Source: an uncultured bacterium
GTDB taxonomy: Bacteria; Krumholzibacteriota; Krumholzibacteriia; Krumholzibacteriales; Krumholzibacteriaceae
Assembly: GCA_965371515.1 (NCBI GenBank)
Contig: CBDUYR010000070.1
Coordinates: 1 to 11,205, forward strand
Direction of reading: 5' to 3'
DNA: 11,205 nucleotides
Shown here one piece after another: positions 898 to 10,643 of the stretch (its first letter is position 1; every line of letters begins with the position of its first letter). A model generated the notes under the pieces. It was not told the origin of the DNA. It made no database searches and was given only the letters and a program-made list of their open reading frames with translations. The position numbers and the translations under genes were made by a program.

Positions 898-1731
898 CTA
901 TGCGGGCGGATCGGTCTCGACCATCTGTGACTGGATGTGGAATCCCCCGACGAGGCTCTCGAGCGAGCCGGAACTCTCGAGGAAAGGGAACTCTATCAGG
1001 ACGGGGTGCGAGGCCTCGAGGTGGATTTCCTTCATGAAACTCGAACAGGTCTGTATCGATTCGGGCAGGGTGGCGAAGAAGATGTAGTCGACCAGGCGGG
1101 TTGCGTCTTCCGGCCCGAGCGCACACATGACAGGCTTCCCGGGATCGTCGAATCTCTCCGCGCGGAAGACCGGCTGGCGGCGGGTCATGAGCTGTCCTAT
1201 CTTCAGGTACGCCCGCGTGTTAGTGGTCCAGAAGGCGGGGATGTATACGTGCCAGCGGCCGGCCGCATCCATCCGGTCGAGTATATGCTCGAGCTGGGCC
1301 CTCGACGGCAACCGCTGCGACATGTGTGAAGAGTCGATCACCGCCGGCGTGCGCGCATCGGCAGAGTCGGCTCCCATCAGGTTCATTCCCAGCTCCATGA
1401 CCCAGTCCGGCTCTGACGAATCCGCCTCGATCTTCGTCGTGGCGATCTTCTGCGATATTTCCGCAAGACCAGCCATGACCGAGAAGATGTTCTTTCTCAG
1501 GGCGTCCACGTCGGCCTTGAGGGTCCAGAAAGGCAGGTATACGATTTTCCCCTCGCGCTTTTCCGGGGGCGAAGCCCTGTATACATTGAGGGGAGCGAGG
1601 CCGTCGTCCGTGATGATGCAGCGGCGGAAGCAGGTCCTGCACTGGAAGGTGACGTACCTTCCCATGACGGGGAGCTCGCCTCCGCAGTGGCTGCACTGCA
1701 GACGCTGCACAGTCATCAGGCCGTCCTTCAT
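898..1731 (-). CDS. Zinc-ribbon protein (YdjG-like), 277 aa, no obvious transmembrane segment
   Basis: Likely start is ATG 1731, which overlaps the upstream stop (ATGA) and follows GGAAGG. N-terminal CSHC...CRTC, then a YLPFW motif resembling the two upstream genes. The 568-aa track ORF is over-extended. Confidence 0.75.
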   Translation of the reverse strand: MKDGLMTVQRLQCSHCGGELPVMGRYVTFQCRTCFRRCIITDDGLAPLNVYRASPPEKREGKIVYLPFWTLKADVDALRKNIFSVMAGLAEISQKIATTKIEADSSEPDWVMELGMNLMGADSADARTPAVIDSSHMSQRLPSRAQLEHILDRMDAAGRWHVYIPAFWTTNTRAYLKIGQLMTRRQPVFRAERFDDPGKPVMCALGPEDATRLVDYIFFATLPESIQTCSSFMKEIHLEASHPVLIEFPFLESSGSLESLVGGFHIQSQMVETDPPA

Positions 1732-2774
1732 AACCTTCCTCCGAACCAGCGCTCGAGCTTCTCCTGAAGCCAGCGGTGCGGCGGCAGGATCCCGCCGGAC
1801 TGTATCGTGTCGTATACGTACATGGTCCCGGCGGCGATGAAGAGCAGCGGAAACCAGGTACCGGCGAGTATCGCGGCGAATGCCGGGACGAGAAAGAACG
1901 ACCTTGCAGAGATCTTGCTCCATCGGGGGACGTCTCCGCGTATCACATCGCCGTTGTTGCCGTCGATGGTGATCGAGTAGATACGGCCTGCGTGACGGTA
2001 CCGCAGGATATATACGGGGTAGTAGTAGATCGAGAGTCTGTTGCCGAAGAGCTCGAACCTGCTCGCCTTGATAAACGCGCCCGCAGGCGCGGCGAGTGTG
2101 GTCATGTAGCTGTATCCATCGCTGCGTGCCTGCGCGGCTGTTTTCATCGGAAGCGCGATGTTGAGTTTGTCCTTCATGTCGTGCTCGAAGACGTTCCACT
2201 GGAGCATCTGCGTCCTGAGCGAGATCCCCGGGAGGCCGAGGTGCCTCAGCGAGCATGCCGGCGTGCTCCAGTCGATCCGCTTGAACGAGAGTCTGGAGAA
2301 GGGACGTTTCTCCTCCTCGATTCTCGTGACCATCCTCGTTCCTTTCGGACCAGGGACGGGGACCTTGGTCTCGTGCTTGATGATCTCGTTGCCGCTTATC
2401 CACCCGGCCATCATCCCGCTCATTCGCCAGAAGGGCACGTTTATCATCCGCATGTCGATTATCGAGGCATGTCTCGCCTTGACCCTGCCGCCCGTCTCTT
2501 CGGACAGGTACTTCAGGGCGCCGAGCCTCGCCTTGCCTTCGCTGATGCGGGGATCGAGGATATATCCGCGGACCCCCCTCGGGCGGGTGACCAGCAGAGC
2601 GCAACCGCAGTATTCACAGATAATGCTTCTTTCACCCTCGTGGACCCTGAGCGATCCGCCGCAACCGCTGCAGCTCACACCGAACGTCTCGGTGGACAGG
2701 GATGCCTGCCGGATGGCGGCATTCTCTTCGGCTTCGGCGGAGGCCGTTTCGACGTTATCGAGGAGTTCAGTCAC
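1728..2774 (-). CDS. Zinc-ribbon membrane protein (YdjG-like), 348 aa
   Basis: CSGC...CEYC near the N-terminus, NVPFW motif, YYPVYILRYRHAGRIYSITIDGNNGDVIRG motif, and a C-terminal hydrophobic segment (FFLVPAFAAILAGTWFPLLFIAAGTMYVY). GTG start overlaps the previous gene by 8 bp. Confidence 0.8.
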   Translation of the reverse strand: MTELLDNVETASAEAEENAAIRQASLSTETFGVSCSGCGGSLRVHEGERSIICEYCGCALLVTRPRGVRGYILDPRISEGKARLGALKYLSEETGGRVKARHASIIDMRMINVPFWRMSGMMAGWISGNEIIKHETKVPVPGPKGTRMVTRIEEEKRPFSRLSFKRIDWSTPACSLRHLGLPGISLRTQMLQWNVFEHDMKDKLNIALPMKTAAQARSDGYSYMTTLAAPAGAFIKASRFELFGNRLSIYYYPVYILRYRHAGRIYSITIDGNNGDVIRGDVPRWSKISARSFFLVPAFAAILAGTWFPLLFIAAGTMYVYDTIQSGGILPPHRWLQEKLERWFGGRL

Positions 2775-3480
2775 TCCTGCTCACCATCCTCGCTCGAAGG
2801 GAGAACACTCCCCATCCGGCCAGGGCCGCGGCCATGATAACCATTATCCTGGCTGCCGCCGAATGACCGAGCTTTCCCAGAAAGAGATAAACAACGGCCA
2901 TCGAGACTGCCGCGAGGATGTTCGGTATGCTGACGCTCCGCGGACGCTTCGGCGGTATGGTATCGGCGAATACGTAGTAGCTCTCGCCCATGATCAGGGC
3001 GCGGTATTTCTTTCCTGCTGCCCTGTAGCGCACGCGGTATACGGGAAGAAAGAGGATCCTCGCCGCTTCGGCCAGCGTCTCCGGATCCTCGTCGGGCGGG
3101 ATCACCGTCTCGCCGCCGGCAAGTGATTCATCGAAGAAACGGTATTCCCCCGCGGGAGGGGAGGAGAGGGGGCCGACCTCGGGCCACGAGCCCCTGCCGG
3201 GCTGACCGAAGAGGCGTCCCCTGTCGTCCTCGAGCATGCTGTAGGGAATGTATGCGAAATCGAGCTTGATATCCTTCGGAGAAGCGAGGTTCTTTGCAGC
3301 GAGAAACGACCGGAGCGCCTCTTCGGAGTGCCGGTCGTTCCGCTGATGAGGTAGTATGAGGCGCTCGGGCCCCCTGTCCTCCTCGATAGCGAGGGCGGAA
3401 CCGCAGTACGAGCAGAAGAGCATCTCCTGCCCCGGGTGTACACTGTTTTCGCCCCCGCAGAGACGGCAATTAACCTGCAT
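2767..3480 (-). CDS. Zinc-ribbon membrane protein (YdjG-like), 237 aa
   Basis: ATG 3480 preceded by AAGAGGA, with an 11-bp overlap with the SPFH gene. MQVNCRLC...CSYC, YIPY and [16 protein letters not shown] motifs, and two C-terminal hydrophobic helices. Confidence 0.8.
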
Positions 3481-4627
3481 CGTCCTCTTTTTCCACCCTC
3501 TCACCGCAGCTCGTGCAGAACTTCGTTCCATGAGGCAGCTTCGTATCGCAGTGCGGGCAGATCAGATCGGCGCCGATCTCGTTTCCGCAGCTCGAACAGA
3601 ACTTCGCCTCGGCGGGCAGCTCCGTGCCGCAGTCCTGGCAGCGGTTCATCACGACCAGGTGTGTCCCGCAGTTCTGGCAGAACCTCGAGTCGGGCGTGAC
3701 CTCGTTGTGACACTTCGGGCACTGGAGCATCTCGATCGTGCCGGTTGCAGAGCTCGAGGGGGTGCTGATGCTCCGGGCGAGCATGCCGGGGATCATCATC
3801 CCGAGGCCTGCTCCGACGCCGATGCCCATTCCGCCTGCCGCGGCCGCTCCCGCTCCGCCGCCACCGCCGCTTGAAGATGCTGCGTCTCCCATCGCCTTGG
3901 CGGCCTTGAATTTGAAAAACTCGTCGAGATTGCCTACTGCCTCGAGCCCGCTTCGCTCGTCGATCATCTTCTGAACCTCGGGTGGTGGGGTTATCGAGTT
4001 GATGAAGAAGTCGGTCAGCTCCATGCCGTACTTGGAGAAATCGTTGACGAGCCTCTCCTTGATCTCGACGGCGAGCTCGTCGTAGTACTGCGGAAGTTCG
4101 AAGATCGAGTCGAGCTTCTCGCCGAAGAGGTCGTTTATCCTGGCGACGACGACGTCGCGCAGGTAGTTGCCGATCATCTCGCTTGTGTAGACGCCCTGCG
4201 TTCCCACGACCGTGTTGATGAAGAGAACCGGCTCGGTGATCTTGAATGTGTAGATGCCGAACGCGCGGAGCCTGACCAGTCCGAGCTTGCTGTCCTTGAA
4301 CGCGACGGGATCCTTCGTTCCCCACTTCTGGTTGAGGAACATCTTCATGTTGACAAAATAGACCTCGGCCCTGAAGGGCGATTTGAATCCCCAGGGCAGC
4401 GAGAGGATCTTCGTGAGGATCGGAAGGTTCTTCGTCGTGAGCGTGTGGCGTCCCGCGCCGAAGATGTCGAGGCCCTTTCCATCCTTGAAGAAGACGCCGG
4501 ACTGGTTGTCGCGCACGATCAGCTGGGCGCCCATCTTGATCTCTGCGGACCCCTCCGGGGGTATCCTGTGAACGATCTCCTCGCCCGTCTCGTCGAACCA
4601 CTCGAGGACTTCCATGAACTGTGACAT
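3470..4627 (-). CDS. SPFH/band-7 domain protein with C-terminal zinc ribbons (YdjI-like), 385 aa
   Basis: [46 protein letters not shown] and LRAFG motifs of the YdjI-type SPFH family; Gly/Ala-rich linker; six CxxC (CPKC, CQNC, CQDC, CSSC, CPHC, CTSC). RBS AGGAG 5 nt before the ATG. Confidence 0.92.
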
Positions 4628-4900: not shown

Positions 4901-6061
4901 TTGGCCGGAGAAGGACAGCACAGGATAAAGATCTGCGTGGTGCTGCCGAGACTCAGGATCGGCGGCGCCGAGATGCAGGTCCTTGGCCTTTTTGCCAACA
5001 TAGACCGCTCGCGTTTCGAGCTCCATCTCTGCGTGTTAATGCGCGGCGACGCGAAGATGGAAGCGGCGGCGAGGCGCAACGTCGAATCGTTTACCTGCCT
5101 CGATTTCCGGTGGAGAATGCTGCTTGTCGTATTTCCCCGGTTCGTACGATATCTGAAAAGAGAGAGATTCGATATTCTCCACGCGCATCTCGCCCTTGCC
5201 GATTCCCTGGGCCGCATAGCGGGCAGGTTTGCGGGCGTACCCGTGCTGATGACTACCGAGCACGGGAAACATCTCTGGAAGGGGAGACTCTACCTGATGA
5301 TGGAAAGGATGCTTGCGCGGTCGACCGACATGCGGATATGCGTCAGTGACGATATAGCCCGCATCCGCGTCAACCGCGAGGGTACTCCGGAGGAGAAACT
5401 GGTGGTCATACCCAACTCCGTCGATCCGACCCCCTTCCGCGGCGCCGTAAAGGGACGCGCGGCGGTGATGGCCGAATTCGGCTGGGAGGTGGAGGATCCT
5501 CTCGTCGTCACCGTCGGAAGGCTCGTGGTGGCCAAGGCCTACCCGTCCCTCGTCGAAGCAGTCTCCTTCCTGAAGGAGGAGTTCCCGTCGGTCCGATGCC
5601 TGATAGCAGGCGACGGGCCGTGCCGCGAAGAGATAGAGGAGGCGGTGGAGAGATACGGAGTGAGCGGCAACGTGACGCTGCCCGGAGCGCGAAGGGATAT
5701 ACCAGACCTGCTGTCGGCCTGCGACGTATTTGTACTCTCGTCGATAAGGGAGGGGCTGCCCGTCTCCCTTCTCGAGGCGATGGCGTCCGGCTGCGCGATA
5801 GCGGCGACGGCGGTGGGAGGGATACCTGAGGCCGTAAGGGATGGCGAGAGCGCCCTGCTTGTGCCGCCCGACGAGCCGAGGGCCCTCGGCGGGGCGATCG
5901 GCAGGCTGCTGGGAAACAGGGGACTAGCCGTCCGGTTCGGAGAGAACGCCTCGCGAGTGATAGACGAGAGGTACAGCGCGGCGGGCGTTACGAAAATGAT
6001 CGAGGAGATTTACACGCGGCTAGCTGCCGCGGCGAGAGGTGATAACGATCGGAGCGCCTGA
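4901..6061 (+). CDS. Glycosyltransferase family 4 (GT-B fold), 386 aa
   Basis: GGAE motif near the N-terminus, DILHAH, TEHG, VIPNSVD, VGRLVVAK, and DVFVLSSIREGLPVSLLEAMASG (E-x7-E motif). TTG start with GAGGAGG at 4884-4890. Confidence 0.93.
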   Translation: MAGEGQHRIKICVVLPRLRIGGAEMQVLGLFANIDRSRFELHLCVLMRGDAKMEAAARRNVESFTCLDFRWRMLLVVFPRFVRYLKRERFDILHAHLALADSLGRIAGRFAGVPVLMTTEHGKHLWKGRLYLMMERMLARSTDMRICVSDDIARIRVNREGTPEEKLVVIPNSVDPTPFRGAVKGRAAVMAEFGWEVEDPLVVTVGRLVVAKAYPSLVEAVSFLKEEFPSVRCLIAGDGPCREEIEEAVERYGVSGNVTLPGARRDIPDLLSACDVFVLSSIREGLPVSLLEAMASGCAIAATAVGGIPEAVRDGESALLVPPDEPRALGGAIGRLLGNRGLAVRFGENASRVIDERYSAAGVTKMIEEIYTRLAAAARGDNDRSA

Positions 6062-7310
6062 AGTCTGCAGGAACCGCAATTCCGGCGATGATTCCGGGAA
6101 GGGAACGGGGAAGGTGCGCGGCATTCCCGTTGTGATGTATCACGGCGTCGGGCCCGACAGGCCCGGCTGGATCTGGAACCACCTGCTTACCCCGCTCGAC
6201 GTGTTCGAGGGGCAGATGAAGGCCCTCAGGGACAATGGCTGGACGACGATCTCGCTAGCTGAGCTGCATGCCCATGTATCCGCCGGAGAACCTGTTCCCG
6301 AAAAGCCCGTTGTTCTCACGTTCGATGACGGATACCTCGACAATTATATCCTCGCCTGGCCGATACTGAAGAAGTACGGGCACCGGGCGGTTATCTGGAT
6401 GACGACTGATTTCATCGATCCTTCTCCCGATCCGAGGCCGACACTGGACAGCGGTATCGAGGGGGGCGCCTGGAAGTCGGGAATGCCCCTCAGCGGGTTT
6501 CTCTCGATGGCGGAGATGAGGCTGATGGAGGCTTCGGGGCATATCGAGATCCAGAGCCACGCGAAGACTCACACGTGGTATCCGATCGGGCCGAAGATCG
6601 TCGATTTTCACAGGCCGATCGGCGTCGAGGGATACGCACCTCCGCCCTGGCTTGCGTGGAACACATTTCCCGAGAGCAAGCATGAGTATATGTCACGGGG
6701 CAGGGAGGACGAGATCCCCTGCGGCACGCCGATCTATCGGCACGCCAAGTCGCTCGAGGCGCCGAAATACTTCCCCGACCCCGCGCTCTCTGACAGGCTC
6801 GTTTCACATGTCCTCAAGAACGGCGGCGACAATTTCTTCGCGAGGGACGGATGGCGGAGCGAGCTTGAGAGGATAGCGACGGAGAACCCCCCGTCGGCCG
6901 ACAGTGTGGAAACGCAGGAGGAATTCCGCGAGAGGGTCATGTTCGAACTGACCGAATCGAAACGGATACTGACAGAGGGGCTGGGCCACAGTGTCGATTT
7001 TCTGTGCTGGCCGGGAGGTGGCAGGAATCCCGAGGTCATCGAGTTGGCGAAGAAGGCGGGGTATCTCGCCACGACGACCCACTACCAGGTGATGGATAGA
7101 AGGAATGTCCCCGGGCAGGACCCGTCGGAGATCGGGAGGGTCGGCAGCGGCTCGCCGTGGGCCTGGAGGGGGAAGCTCTTCCGCAGGACCGATCCCGGTT
7201 TCTTCATATCGATCCTTGAAAAGTTCGCCGGCGGTCAAAATACGGTTTGGACGATGAGATTCTATAAATTAAAATACTTTCTGCGCTATTATCTTACCGG
7301 CACGAGATGA
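6039..7310 (+). CDS. Polysaccharide deacetylase family protein (CE4/NodB-like, IcaB/PgaB type)
   Basis: IPVVMYH, VVLTFDDGYLDN, IQSHAKTH, ELTESK and LCWPGG motifs. Start uncertain (GTG 6039 or GTG 6114). Confidence 0.9.
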   Translation: MITIGAPEVCRNRNSGDDSGKGTGKVRGIPVVMYHGVGPDRPGWIWNHLLTPLDVFEGQMKALRDNGWTTISLAELHAHVSAGEPVPEKPVVLTFDDGYLDNYILAWPILKKYGHRAVIWMTTDFIDPSPDPRPTLDSGIEGGAWKSGMPLSGFLSMAEMRLMEASGHIEIQSHAKTHTWYPIGPKIVDFHRPIGVEGYAPPPWLAWNTFPESKHEYMSRGREDEIPCGTPIYRHAKSLEAPKYFPDPALSDRLVSHVLKNGGDNFFARDGWRSELERIATENPPSADSVETQEEFRERVMFELTESKRILTEGLGHSVDFLCWPGGGRNPEVIELAKKAGYLATTTHYQVMDRRNVPGQDPSEIGRVGSGSPWAWRGKLFRRTDPGFFISILEKFAGGQNTVWTMRFYKLKYFLRYYLTGTR

Positions 7311-7329: not shown

Positions 7330-9051
7330 ATGATCCCGCCCCTTCCCGAATCACTGGTAAGAAACGTCGTGTATCCCTTATACAGGGGATTCCGCAAGGA
7401 CAGGGTCCTCGATATCCTCGACGAGCTCGAACACAACCAGTTTCTTCCCGAGAGAGAGATAGAGGATCTGAAGTGGCGCAAGCTGTCCGTTCTGCTCGAA
7501 GCGGCCGGATCCCACGTTCCGTATTACAGAGATCTCTTCGAGCGCGAGGGGATCGACCCGGCCTCCTTCGAGAGCCCGGCGGACATGGTGGCAATACCAT
7601 TTCTGACGAAGGAGATAATCCGGAGCGAGAAAAGGAAGCTGATCTCGAAAGACCCTCTGCGCAGAGGATATCCCTCGAGCACGGGAGGATCGACGGGGGA
7701 GCCGCTCCATTTCTGGTGCGACACCGCCGCCGGCCCGGTGCGCCGTGCGACCACGATGAGGGGGTACCGCTGGACTGGATTCGACATAGGCGGAAGGCAG
7801 GCGATGCTGTGGGGATTCCATCTCGACAGGCCGTTGAAGGAGCGGATCTCCGAGGGCGCGAAGAACTTTTTCAACAACATCATGACCCTTTCCTCGTTCG
7901 ACATGACCCCGGAGATGATGAGGAGATACGCGGTGAGGCTCAGGCGGTTCAGGCCGTCCATCGTGATCGGCTACCCTTCCGCGCTGACGGCCTTTTCCGA
8001 ATTCTGCCGGGGCGCGGGCGTCCGCCTGCCCTCCCTGAAGGCCGTGGTAACGGGAGGCGAGAGGCTCTTTCCGCATCAGAGGGACCTGATCGAGGAGGCC
8101 TTCCACGCCGACGTGTTCGACCGCTACGGAAGCAGGGAATTTTCCGCCGTCGCGCACGAATGTTCCGAGCACAAGGGACTGCATGTTTTCAACGACCTCT
8201 TTCACGTCGAGGTCATCCACGAAAGCGGGCGCGCGGCGCAGAGCGGTGAAATAGGGGAACTGGTCATCACCGACCTTTCCAATCTTTACATGCCGTTCAT
8301 AAGGTACAGGACGGGCGATCTTGCCATGCCGACTGAAAGGAAGTGCCCGTGCGGCAGGGGGCTCCCACTGCTCGAGAGGATAGAGGGACGCTCATTCGAC
8401 TCGATCGTCACTCCCGAGGGAAAGAAGGTAGGCGGCTTCTTCTGGACCTGGCTGTCCAGGGCCGTACCCGGCATCGACAGGTTCCAGATCGAGCAGAGAG
8501 ACAGGGCCGGCATCATCTTTCGTATTGTTCCGGGCGAGGGATGGCGGGACGATCATATGGAGGTCCTCGCCGGAAAGATACGCGAGAACTGCTGCGAGGA
8601 TTTCAGGATCGATTTCCAGGTGGTCGACGACATCCCGCTGACGCCGGCGGGAAAGGCGAAATTCATCATCTCGAACATCGAGGAGAGGCTCGTCATCAAA
8701 TCGAAGATCCACAAGGCTCACATAAGCGGCGACGCACCGGAGGAGAACGACTGCCTGCGGATCGATGCGAAGCTTTTGGAACTGGGCAACGTGGCGGTGT
8801 TCGAGAAGATCCTCATAGTCAACGCCACGAGCGGGGCCAGGCTGGAGACCTTCGCACTCGAAGCGGAGAGCGGAAGCGGGGACATCATCGCCTGCGGGGC
8901 GGTTTCGAGGCTCTGCAGGCCTGGAGACGAGATAAGCGTCATGGCATTCACCTGGTCGACCGGGGAATCGGGCGATTTCAGCAACATCCTGGTCGATGAG
9001 GAGAACAGGTTCGTCAGATACCTTACCGAGAAGGCAGGCGACAGGATCTGA
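7330..9051 (+). CDS. PaaK/CapK-like adenylate-forming ligase (aa 1-450) fused to a degenerate PanD-like domain (aa 451-573)
   Basis: ANL-family motifs [28 protein letters not shown] and TPAGKAK. From 8680 the protein aligns without gaps to aspartate 1-decarboxylase (KSKIHKA...IDAKLL...SGARLETF...GSG...GA...PGDEI). No stop or separate start at the junction. Confidence 0.9.
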
Positions 9052-9075
9052 GCGGCATCCAGTCCCCGAAACGGC

Positions 9076-9104
9076 TTTTCATCCCGTGGGGTTTGTACTA
9101 TATT
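9076..9104 (+). promoter_or_regulatory. Possible sigma-70-type internal promoter upstream of panD
   Basis: TTTTCA (9076-9081), 17-bp spacer, TATATT (9099-9104) in the 82-bp intergenic gap. Confidence 0.35.
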
Positions 9105-9133
9105 CCGAACGATCCTTCACAATGGACTGTTAC

Positions 9134-9481
9134 ATGAAATGTCTTCTACTTAAATCGATGATTCTCCGGGCCACCGTAACACAGGCCGATCTGCGCTATG
9201 TGGGAAGCATCACGATAGACGAAGACCTGATCGACAGGGCCAACCTGAGCGAACACGAGAACGTGTACGTCATCGACCGCACCAACGGCCACAGGCTCCA
9301 GACCTACGTCATCAAGGGAGAGAGGGGAAGTGGTGTGATTGGGATGAACGGCGCTGCCGCCCATCTCGTAAACGAGGGCGACGAGATCGACATCATGGCT
9401 TACAGCTGGTCGTCGGGCGATGCACGTCCCATGCTGATAGAGGTCGATTCGGGCAACAGATTCAAGGGTTACGCAGGCTGA
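9134..9481 (+). CDS. panD: Aspartate 1-decarboxylase family protein (pyruvoyl-dependent), 115 aa, atypical at positions 9, 11 and 86
   Basis: Starting at ATG 9134 the numbering matches E. coli PanD exactly: [12 protein letters not shown] (G24-S25 at 9203-9208), NGHRLQTY (R54, T57, Y58), [15 protein letters not shown] (N72). The usual KSKIHRA reads KSMILRA here. Confidence 0.88.
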
Positions 9482-9497
9482 CCCGCCGGGATGATCG

Positions 9498-10643
9498 ATG
9501 TTCAATAAAAATCTCAGGCTCTTCACTCTCCAGGGTATACCGGTCGAGATCAATATCTCATGGCTCTTTGTTCTCGCGCTCGTCACGTGGTCGTTTGCCA
9601 CCGGGTTCTATCCCGAATCGTACCCGGGCCTCTTCACATCCGCGGCGAAATGGACGCTGTCGCTGCTCACCGCCCTTCTGCTCTTCACGTCGATACTCAT
9701 CCATGAGTTCAGTCATGCGATTGTTGCATCGAGGGGCGGACTGCCGATCAAGCGGATAACGCTGTTCATGTTCGGCGGCGTCGCCCAGATGGGGCACGAG
9801 GTCGACGAACCGTCGCTCGAGCTGCGCATGGCGGCGGCAGGCCCGCTGATGACCCTGGTCCTTGTCGGTGTGTTTCTGGGGGCGGCGACCCTGGCAAGGG
9901 GCGTTCCGTTCCTCTCGATCCTTTTTGGTACGGTCGGCGCGATTAACATCGGGGTATTCGTCTTCAACATGGTGCCGGGATTCCCTCTCGATGGAGGGAG
10001 GATATTGAGGGCGATCATCTGGAAGAGGACTGGCAACGTCAGGAAGGCGACACGGATCGCTACGGGAGTGGGGAAGGTCTTCGCATGGATCCTCGTGGCG
10101 GGAGGAGCCTTCAATTTTCTCGTGTACGACAACCTTGTCAGCGGAATCTGGATGGTGTTCATCGGACTCTTTCTCAGGCAGGCGGCCGCGAGGAGCTACA
10201 GGCAGATCATATGGAAGAAGTCACTGGCAGAGATGAAGATCGGAGACGTGATGCGCCGGGATATGCCGGCCATCGATCCTTCGACCGATCTCGAGACACT
10301 CGTCGAGGAGTTCTTCCTGCGTTTTCACCTGGACAGCCTGCCGGTCGTGTCAGGAGGGATGCTGCTCGGGATCGTATATCTCGATGATGTTACCGCGATA
10401 GACCGAGGCGAGTGGACCGGCATCTCCGCAGCCGATGTCGTGAGGAAGATCGATCCTTCATCGGTCGCGAGGCCGGATGATCCAGCCTGGACGCTTTTTG
10501 TCCCTCTGGTGCAGCAGGGACGCGGAATCGTACCTGTAGCCGGACCGGACGGACGTCTGGCCGGAGTGGTGACGAGAAGGGACTATTCGGCCCTCCTCGA
10601 TGTGATGTCTACTGTCGGCTCCCGACGTGCGGGCCCCGGCTGA
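9498..10643 (+). CDS. Site-2 protease (peptidase M50) with C-terminal CBS domain pair, 381 aa
   Basis: HEFSH zinc motif, LFMFGGVA, AAAGP, FNMVPGFPLDGGR and several hydrophobic segments; C-terminal IGDVM...LPVV...LLGIV...VPV...LAGVVTRRD CBS pattern. Confidence 0.93.
   Translation: MFNKNLRLFTLQGIPVEINISWLFVLALVTWSFATGFYPESYPGLFTSAAKWTLSLLTALLLFTSILIHEFSHAIVASRGGLPIKRITLFMFGGVAQMGHEVDEPSLELRMAAAGPLMTLVLVGVFLGAATLARGVPFLSILFGTVGAINIGVFVFNMVPGFPLDGGRILRAIIWKRTGNVRKATRIATGVGKVFAWILVAGGAFNFLVYDNLVSGIWMVFIGLFLRQAAARSYRQIIWKKSLAEMKIGDVMRRDMPAIDPSTDLETLVEEFFLRFHLDSLPVVSGGMLLGIVYLDDVTAIDRGEWTGISAADVVRKIDPSSVARPDDPAWTLFVPLVQQGRGIVPVAGPDGRLAGVVTRRDYSALLDVMSTVGSRRAGPG

Follow-up and report, generated by a model that had tools for sequence, protein, structure and literature searches.

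The window, by which we mean the whole stretch of 11,205 nt analyzed here, carries a run of five genes on the same strand: a GT4 glycosyltransferase, a polysaccharide deacetylase, a ligase fused to a PanD-like domain (A), a stand-alone PanD-like gene (B), and an M50 peptidase-CBS gene (Table 1). The GT4 gene was found at 14 and the deacetylase gene at 21 of the 40 loci at which A and B are adjacent. The ATG at 9134 that opens B is also used by relatives. In a promoter scan, a single weak match lay in the gap that separates A from B (9076-9104), an uninformative result with 6 sites found and 2.3 ± 1.9 in shuffled sequences. No tie between the M50 peptidase-CBS gene and the mechanism of PanD was seen.

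Table 1 Genes and gene parts of the window
Feature	Position (nt)	Strand	Basis and remarks
GT4 glycosyltransferase	4901-6061	+	Profile matches; start codon uncertain; upstream of the fusion, same orientation
Polysaccharide deacetylase (PF01522)	6039-7310	+	Profile match; uncertain start codon; the gene just before the ligase
573-aa ORF (ligase and C-terminal PanD domain A)	7330-9051	+	
CapK/PaaK-type adenylate-forming ligase (N-terminal part of the 573-aa fusion)	7330-8679	+	PaaK structures, E 1.9e-32
PanD-like domain A (fused)	8680-9051 (compared part, 8680-9048)	+	PF02261, 71.7 bits; conservation; AlphaFold2 model
Stand-alone PanD B (115 aa)	9134-9481	+	TIGR00223, 117.9 bits against a cut-off of 106; conservation
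M50 peptidase-CBS	9498-10643	+	Profile match; conserved downstream neighbor

Residues of the two PanD copies

Both copies passed the cut-off of PF02261, and B also passed that of TIGR00223, below which A fell (47.6). The AlphaFold2 model of A (mean pLDDT 89) matched uncleaved PanD structures with TM 0.85-0.93, as expected of members of the double-psi beta-barrel ADC fold. A and B were 35% identical. The gap-free alignment claimed in the preliminary description was confirmed, A, B, and E. coli PanD having equal lengths over about residues 3-94; the alignment of both copies with M. tuberculosis PanD was likewise free of gaps, across roughly residues 3-91. All residues and codons that had been assigned to the two copies were present in the sequence. 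A retains K9 (AAG, 8704), H11 (CAC, 8710), R54 (8839), and T57 (8848), and is changed to E22, D24-C25 (GAC TGC, 8749-8754), F58 (8851), C72 (8893), V75, and S86 (8935). B retains Y22, G24-S25 (9203-9208), R54 (9293), T57-Y58 (9302-9307), N72 (9347), and A74-A75, and is changed to M9 (ATG, 9158), L11 (CTC, 9164), and D86 (9389-9391). The full self-sufficient set, namely K9, H11, R54, and the cleavage site in one chain, was found in neither A nor B and was absent from every PanD match of the order to which the window belongs.

Conservation and distribution of the pair

Three sets were compared: A (64 fusion homologues, which are all matches of the search), B (the best 120 of 261 matches to the B profile, a set that favors sequences near the profile), and ordinary PanD (n = 175, made up of 36 from sister families and 139 from a list, from which 10 rows that were A-type, B-type, or fragments had been removed). 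K9 was present in 64/64 A domains, in 0/120 of the best 120 of 261 B matches, and in 174/174 ordinary PanDs; the respective counts for H11 were 64/64, 0/120, and 172/174. The converse was found for Y22, G24, and Y58 (0/64 each in A; 120/120 each in the best 120 of 261 B matches) and for N72 (0/63 and 120/120). S25 occurred in 3/64 A domains (Cys in 52, Gly in 9) and in 119/120 of the same best B matches, R54 in 64/64 and 120/120, and T57 in 59/64 and 120/120. G24-S25 together with T57, Y58, and N72 within one chain was therefore a property of B alone (119-120 of the best 120 of 261 matches). Since K9 and H11 are found in all A domains and in none of these B proteins, with the opposite for Y22, G24, Y58, and N72, the reciprocal pattern is not one of chance or drift.

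Two invariant residues are missing from the preliminary description: Asp24 in A (64/64) and Asp86, normally Ile, in B (120/120 of the best 120 of 261). M9 was present in 117/120 of these B matches, and I86 was lost from 50/64 A domains. The change of A75 to Val, listed as a site loss in A, is real and uninformative, because 23% of A domains retain A75 and ordinary PanDs are variable there. Cys25 is indeed present in A; as a loss it is equivocal, being by itself compatible with processing according to the title of PDB 1pyu (E. coli S25C, processed). V23 was rejected as a special change of B, as 42% of ordinary PanDs carry it.

A deeper branch (L187, L188, and P0114) has the same cassette, and its B proteins retain H11 and are changed only by K9M and I86D, the constant changes of B. 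The loss of H11 in B is therefore secondary; the claim that the stand-alone copy has lost both K9 and H11 stands for K9, which is lost from every B, and not for H11, which these three B-type proteins keep. Four more genome loci, one labeled Ca. Eisenbacteria, carry an A+B pair, and the A domain of L149 retains Y58 and carries E24-G25. Pairwise dN/dS over 10 pairs was 0.02-0.27 for A and 0.02-0.14 for B, values that indicate that both copies are under purifying selection and that point to a conserved system, not to decay. Both stood apart from the ordinary PanD of the class; their sisterhood by duplication was neither rejected nor shown (p-AU 0.46), and an 87-row quick tree did not resolve it. 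No natural single-chain fusion of A and B was seen among 38 motif-scanned matches in longer proteins, which is weak evidence with 8000 candidates scored; all readable PanD matches in longer proteins (38 motif-scanned, 6 examined in full) were ordinary PanD.

Close homologues bear source names that put the lineage in Candidatus Krumholzibacteriota. We surveyed 208 genomes of the phylum, 52 of which belong to the order of the window (families f1-f3). A PanD match was found in 48 of these 52 genomes, and 45 of the 48 carried both A and B, adjacent in 40. Ordinary PanD was absent from the order: no PanD match across the 52 genomes unites K9 with G24-S25. The genome of the window, which is 99.6% complete, has two PanD matches only, A and B, and carries panB beside panC on another contig. 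The preliminary description suggested looking for loss of K9 and H11 in the panD next to homologous ligase-PanD fusions; K9 was missing from B-type copies throughout (0/120 in the best 120 of 261 matches). Both copies outlast relocation: the fusion has moved to another locus in G033, and likewise in G072, and both genomes retain A and B. In G043 a single B accompanies two fusions. In the sister families, all 36 single PanD copies examined (of 41, in three families) were ordinary, and three other families had PanD in 0/7, 0/10, and 0/91 genomes, yet have panC. The neighborhoods of 13 close ordinary PanDs held no ligase or glycan cassette.

Three genomes of the order (G062, G075, and G034) depart from the A+B pattern. 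The loci of G062 and G075 break at contig ends, and G075 has an A fragment. In G034 (94% complete) a glycosyltransferase is followed directly by an intact B; neither A or a fused ligase nor an orthologue of the marker gene of the relocated locus was found in this genome, and an assembly gap and a real loss both stand. G034 is a real point against mutual dependence of A and B, unless its fusion sits on an unassembled contig, relocated as in G033.

As for the supply of beta-alanine, panC was present in 51/52 genomes of the order, and the group II PLP decarboxylase was missing from 14/19 well-assembled relatives in the order (present in 5/19) and present in 3/3, 9/9, and 42/44 well-assembled genomes of the PanD-less sister families. 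The argument from pantothenate is a soft one: those three families have panC without any PanD, and the genome of the window and G034 each carry a PLP decarboxylase.

Ligase integrity and the glycan genes

The ligase of the window has the adenylation motifs A3, A5, A7, A8, and A10 (ANL nomenclature) and the C-terminal subdomain of CapK/PaaK-type enzymes; no damage is seen in its P-loop, in its A5, A7, and A8 motifs, or at the A10 lysine. Its nearest clusters carry PF27533 (CapK_C). It did not reach the PaaK equivalog cut-offs (TIGR02155, 91 against 646 bits; NF041878, 109 against 700 bits) and no named ligase family of NCBIfam gave it a score above the cut-off. A literature search on CapK chemistry returned nothing useful.

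Most of the CapK_C subdomain was deleted in frame in 17/64 homologues, with several different breakpoints, and the P-loop was often eroded. The deletion, carried by 19/71 rows of a tree from which the deleted columns had been left out, required at least four changes. The ligase motifs were intact at 22/23 loci that retain GT4, the deacetylase, or both, vs. 4/13 loci that lack both (Fisher test, P = 7e-5, a value inflated by kinship; 36 adjacent-pair loci, 4 truncated loci dropped), whereas K9, H11, and D24 of A were intact at all 36. Thus, the integrity of the ligase tracks the glycan genes and that of A does not. The preliminary description had an A2B2 tetramer dock the decarboxylase onto the ligase; the fusion is there, but A persists where the ligase is eroded, so docking cannot alone explain the retention of A. 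An apparent frameshift in the ligase of G053 was in fact an assembly gap of Ns and was left out of the decay count.

The N-domain of the ligase was never cleanly lost in these sets, and its dN/dS was about 0.1 in the tested pairs of deletion lineages, along a path that takes in intact lineages. Because this domain is still constrained, decay of the ligase is shown only in part, and the N-domain may serve a structural purpose. Moved or duplicated fusions have polysaccharide genes around them (pyruvyl transferase, export protein, sugar transferases).

A shared-site tetramer and its alternatives

The available text of PMC3314653 places the PanD site at a dimer interface, with Lys9* (ion-paired with the alpha-carboxylate) and Arg54* contributed by another subunit. 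Arg54 also acts in trans in the accessible parts of PMC6969166 and PMC8659263, so its earlier attribution to the neighboring subunit is borne out. K9 and H11 are modeled as binding the alpha-carboxylate in the available text of PMC10743139, in which the subunit is not named. The accessible portions of PMC3975893 report that T57 is needed for maturation and that Y22, Y58, and N72 are not, with Y58 cited as proton donor; those of PMC9429672 and PMC7770189 agree on the site residues, and those of PMC4537548 and PMC3461031 hold nothing on K9 or H11. Of the two residues that had been ascribed to the neighbor, K9 is thus placed there by the available text of one secondary paper (PMC3314653); H11 is assigned by none of the papers cited, and its placement there is consistent with the model below.

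The A2B2 model had a score of 0.88 vs. 0.00 for the best of three controls; the score mark is reached by 116/157 solved complexes and by 2/215 mismatched pairs, counts that apply only roughly here. The runs agreed in at least 93% of contacts, with partner pLDDT of at least 90, and the top contacts formed an alternating ring. In it, the Y58 residues of the two B copies reach different A copies: one contacts residues 5, 6, and 90 of its A, and the other contacts residue 88 of its A. Residue 58 of each A contacts the N-terminal strand and the strand 86-90 of a B. The interface includes residues 20-25 and 72-75 of B and residues 11, 54, and 86 of A; K9 of A is not among its named residues, which speaks against the A2B2 reading. 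The alternating tetramer of the preliminary description agrees with the comparative tests and with this ring, although, PanD homotetramers being already solved, the pass may show likeness only.

H11 and I86, which we take to belong to the neighbor-side face, are placed consistently with the A2B2 model. With this placement, all three losses of B (positions 9, 11, and 86) are on the neighbor-side face (P = 0.024 among 11 site positions), and five of the six losses of A are on the own-side face (P = 0.20). The joint P of the face pattern is about 0.005, for a single evolutionary event and with the faces of H11 and I86 assigned in line with the model. Site losses are therefore complementary and on opposite faces, as in shared-site paralogues, given that placement.

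These patterns make it probable that A and B together form an obligate A2B2 decarboxylase, two of whose sites are live and two dead; it would feed both pantothenate synthesis and the CapK-type ligase. B would cleave itself at G24-S25 and so generate the pyruvoyl cofactor, and A, in the neighboring position, would supply Lys9, His11, and Arg54 across the interface. An A-B-A-B ring would then contain two working sites, with Y22, G24-S25, T57, Y58, N72, and A74 of B facing K9, H11, and R54 of A, and two dead ones, with D24, C25, F58, and C72 of A facing M9, L11, R54, and D86 of B. The dead pocket is probably plugged by the invariant D24 of A and R54 and D86 of B. The binding of A to B, the stoichiometry, and the obligate dependence are what we infer from sequence and model; the earlier proposal that neither copy should work well alone, each having kept one face, gains from the fixation of the reciprocity in homologues and is weakened by the loss of I86 from most A domains and by the B without A in G034. 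In addition, A may not be wholly inert, as it keeps T57 in 59/64 homologues and mostly Cys25, and the title of 1pyu describes E. coli S25C as processed; Cys25 of A, with T57, might still cleave.

Beta-alanine, made from L-aspartate, is the most likely product. It would pass to the tethered CapK-type ligase for an amide link to a glycan made with the neighboring GT4 and deacetylase, the adenylated partner of the ligase step being either beta-alanine or a sugar acid, and pantothenate synthesis would be a second customer. The need for pantothenate supply is proposed as the reason why both halves are intact after the loss of the glycan genes and the erosion of the ligase. The substrate may differ from aspartate: as I86 is lost from 50/64 A domains, the rebuilt site would not be fully ordinary. 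Taurine amides occur in a staphylococcal capsule that has a CapK gene, and cysteate to taurine is therefore a candidate reaction.

A wider evolutionary reading, to which we give about an even chance, is that an ancient PanD pair split one interface site and that a CapK-type amide ligase acquired the dead copy as a fused domain, the amine for glycan decoration then being made on the ligase. As the pair is the only PanD of the order, the fused half-enzyme would have been locked in for pantothenate supply and would have outlived the ligase and the glycan genes; the loss of I86 may widen the pocket, for example for cysteate to taurine.

It is also conceivable, and in our view unlikely, that B is an active homotetramer with a pocket remodeled for another substrate (M9, L11, R54, and D86) and that A plays no catalytic part and serves for docking or ligand binding, being retained for some other reason. 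R54 and D86 in 120/120 and M9 in 117/120 of the best 120 of 261 B matches have the look of fixed replacements, not of free drift, and the B without A in G034 and the H11 kept in the deeper branch fit such an enzyme. Yet a remodeled B leaves the retention of K9, H11, and R54 by A (64/64, even with an eroded ligase) unexplained, and in 14/19 genomes panC would be accompanied by no aspartate decarboxylase and by no PLP substitute. Moreover, K9 is present in 174/174 ordinary PanDs and pairs with the departing alpha-carboxylate, a group common to any amino acid (PMC3314653, available text). The R54 that B keeps on the supposedly dead neighbor-side face (120/120 of the best 120 of 261), with its invariant D86, counts against the A2B2 reading and is as in a remodeled pocket.

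Less probable again is that A binds B as a maturation factor or allosteric activator, in the manner of PanZ or prozyme, and does not complete the site residue by residue. The title of PDB 1pt1 describes E. coli H11A crystallized unprocessed, so H11 of the neighbor may matter for cleavage, activation of a pyruvoyl decarboxylase by a dead paralogue is known (PMC5201418, available text), and the A2B2 model supports binding either way. Against this, the wild-type zymogen was crystallized unprocessed as well (PDB 1ppy), which makes the H11A title weak evidence, and mere activation would leave a B without K9 still short of the ion pair. Activation is compatible with the obligate A2B2 decarboxylase and not exclusive of it; unprocessed H11A hints that A, besides donating residues, could also assist the maturation of B. 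That A and B are two decaying or unrelated copies that never interact, their reciprocity being coincidence, is very improbable: non-overlap of the lost positions is in itself not unlikely, the losses arose once, and the sisterhood test leaves such an origin room, but purifying selection acts on both copies, they co-occur in 45/48 genomes and are both retained after relocation (G033 and G072), and the losses are face-specific.

Among known systems, PanD/ADC (PF02261, TIGR00223; PDB 1ppy, 2c45, 1uhe, 6oyy) shares with A and B the fold and an active site at the interface, and no strictly conserved site residue is missing from A and B taken together, apart from I86 in most pairs. Known PanDs are homotetramers with both faces in each chain, whereas here neither chain is complete and a CapK-type ligase is joined to one of them. 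In the available texts on trypanosomatid deoxyhypusine synthase (DHSc/DHSp; PMC7581365, PMC3663545), two paralogues from a homotetrameric enzyme family assemble into a heterotetramer in which two of the shared sites are live and two are dead, both paralogues being required, and A and B are predicted by analogy to work in the same way. That enzyme differs in its fold, its NAD-dependent chemistry, its eukaryotic host, and its lack of self-cleavage and of a fusion; it is known from experiment, A+B from sequence and model. The likeness is predicted to be smaller to AdoMetDC/prozyme of T. brucei and to PanD-PanZ. The former, in the accessible part of PMC5201418, is a pyruvoyl decarboxylase dependent on a paralogue without catalytic activity, but it is a heterodimer of another fold that works by allosteric relief of autoinhibition, whereas A is predicted to donate site residues. 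In the latter (PanZ/PanM; PMC4410942, available text), a partner protein at the PanD interfaces governs maturation, but PanZ is an unrelated protein of acetyltransferase fold outside an intact homotetramer. The ligase resembles CapK/PaaK-type enzymes (PF27533 CapK_C; PaaK, PDB 4r1l and 2y27) in motifs, domain layout, and glycan-gene neighborhood, and differs from them in its C-terminal PanD-like domain and in its scores below every named family.

A literature search, with most subscription papers beyond its reach, found no report of a split, heteromeric, or ligase-fused PanD, in line with the novelty suggested earlier. The principle of a shared-site heterotetramer is known from trypanosomatid deoxyhypusine synthase and looks unreported for PanD. 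The database label "aspartate 1-decarboxylase" is probably wrong for either copy taken alone. If the A2B2 reading is true, the pair would offer a substrate clue for the poorly characterized CapK-type ligases of glycan loci, and a natural experiment that separates the own-side from the neighbor-side roles (K9 and H11) in the maturation and catalysis of PanD. It would also be a bacterial case, in two small proteins, in which complementary losses at a shared site turned a homomeric enzyme into an obligate heteromer, and a system of two genes of about 120 codons each that is testable in E. coli.

Gene content upstream of the cassette

Many relatives share, upstream of the cassette, the run formed by the SPFH/Band-7 gene and the genes for Cys-rich proteins, and the Cys-rich proteins of the window had no Pfam match. 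GC content was lower across the end of the LVIVD-repeat protein.

Features of the upstream part of the window
Feature	Position	Strand	Basis
LVIVD-repeat protein, end only, truncated by contig start	1-885		
ORF next after the LVIVD-repeat gene	937-1329		No Pfam match
SPFH/Band-7 protein with double zinc ribbon, then Cys-rich proteins	1731-4627	-	Pfam search

Variant PanD homologues and fusions

The stand-alone PanD of the window (B) has Cys at position 3 (codon 9140-9142), whereas 97% of its relatives have Arg; R3 is tied to self-processing in PMC10743139.

Relocated or duplicated fusions of the ligase with the PanD-like domain (A) were found at loci L057 (genome G043) and L052 (genome G033), where their neighbours encode an FrhB-like protein and a polysaccharide pyruvyl transferase.

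The homologue P0107 was chimeric: its N-terminal half was of the A type (K9, H11, D24), and past G73 its C-terminal half was of the B type; it lacks the cleavage serine. It is either the product of a deletion between the A and B paralogues or an assembly chimera. An odd PanD, P0155 (a cluster of 6), combined K9, Q11, Q22, G24-C25, Y58, N72, and D86. PanD genes of ordinary appearance at L171, L176, L177, and L182, three of which have Tyr in place of N72, came from records titled Saccharibacteria or Woesearchaeota, lineages poor in biosynthetic genes.

Families and genomes lacking PanD

Several genomes of family f5 of the class (e.g., G008, G009, G016, and G018) had neither PanD nor a group II PLP decarboxylase. 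Families f4, f6, and f7 had panC and no PanD, and nearly all of their well-assembled genomes encoded group II PLP decarboxylases, which are candidate replacements for PanD in these three families.
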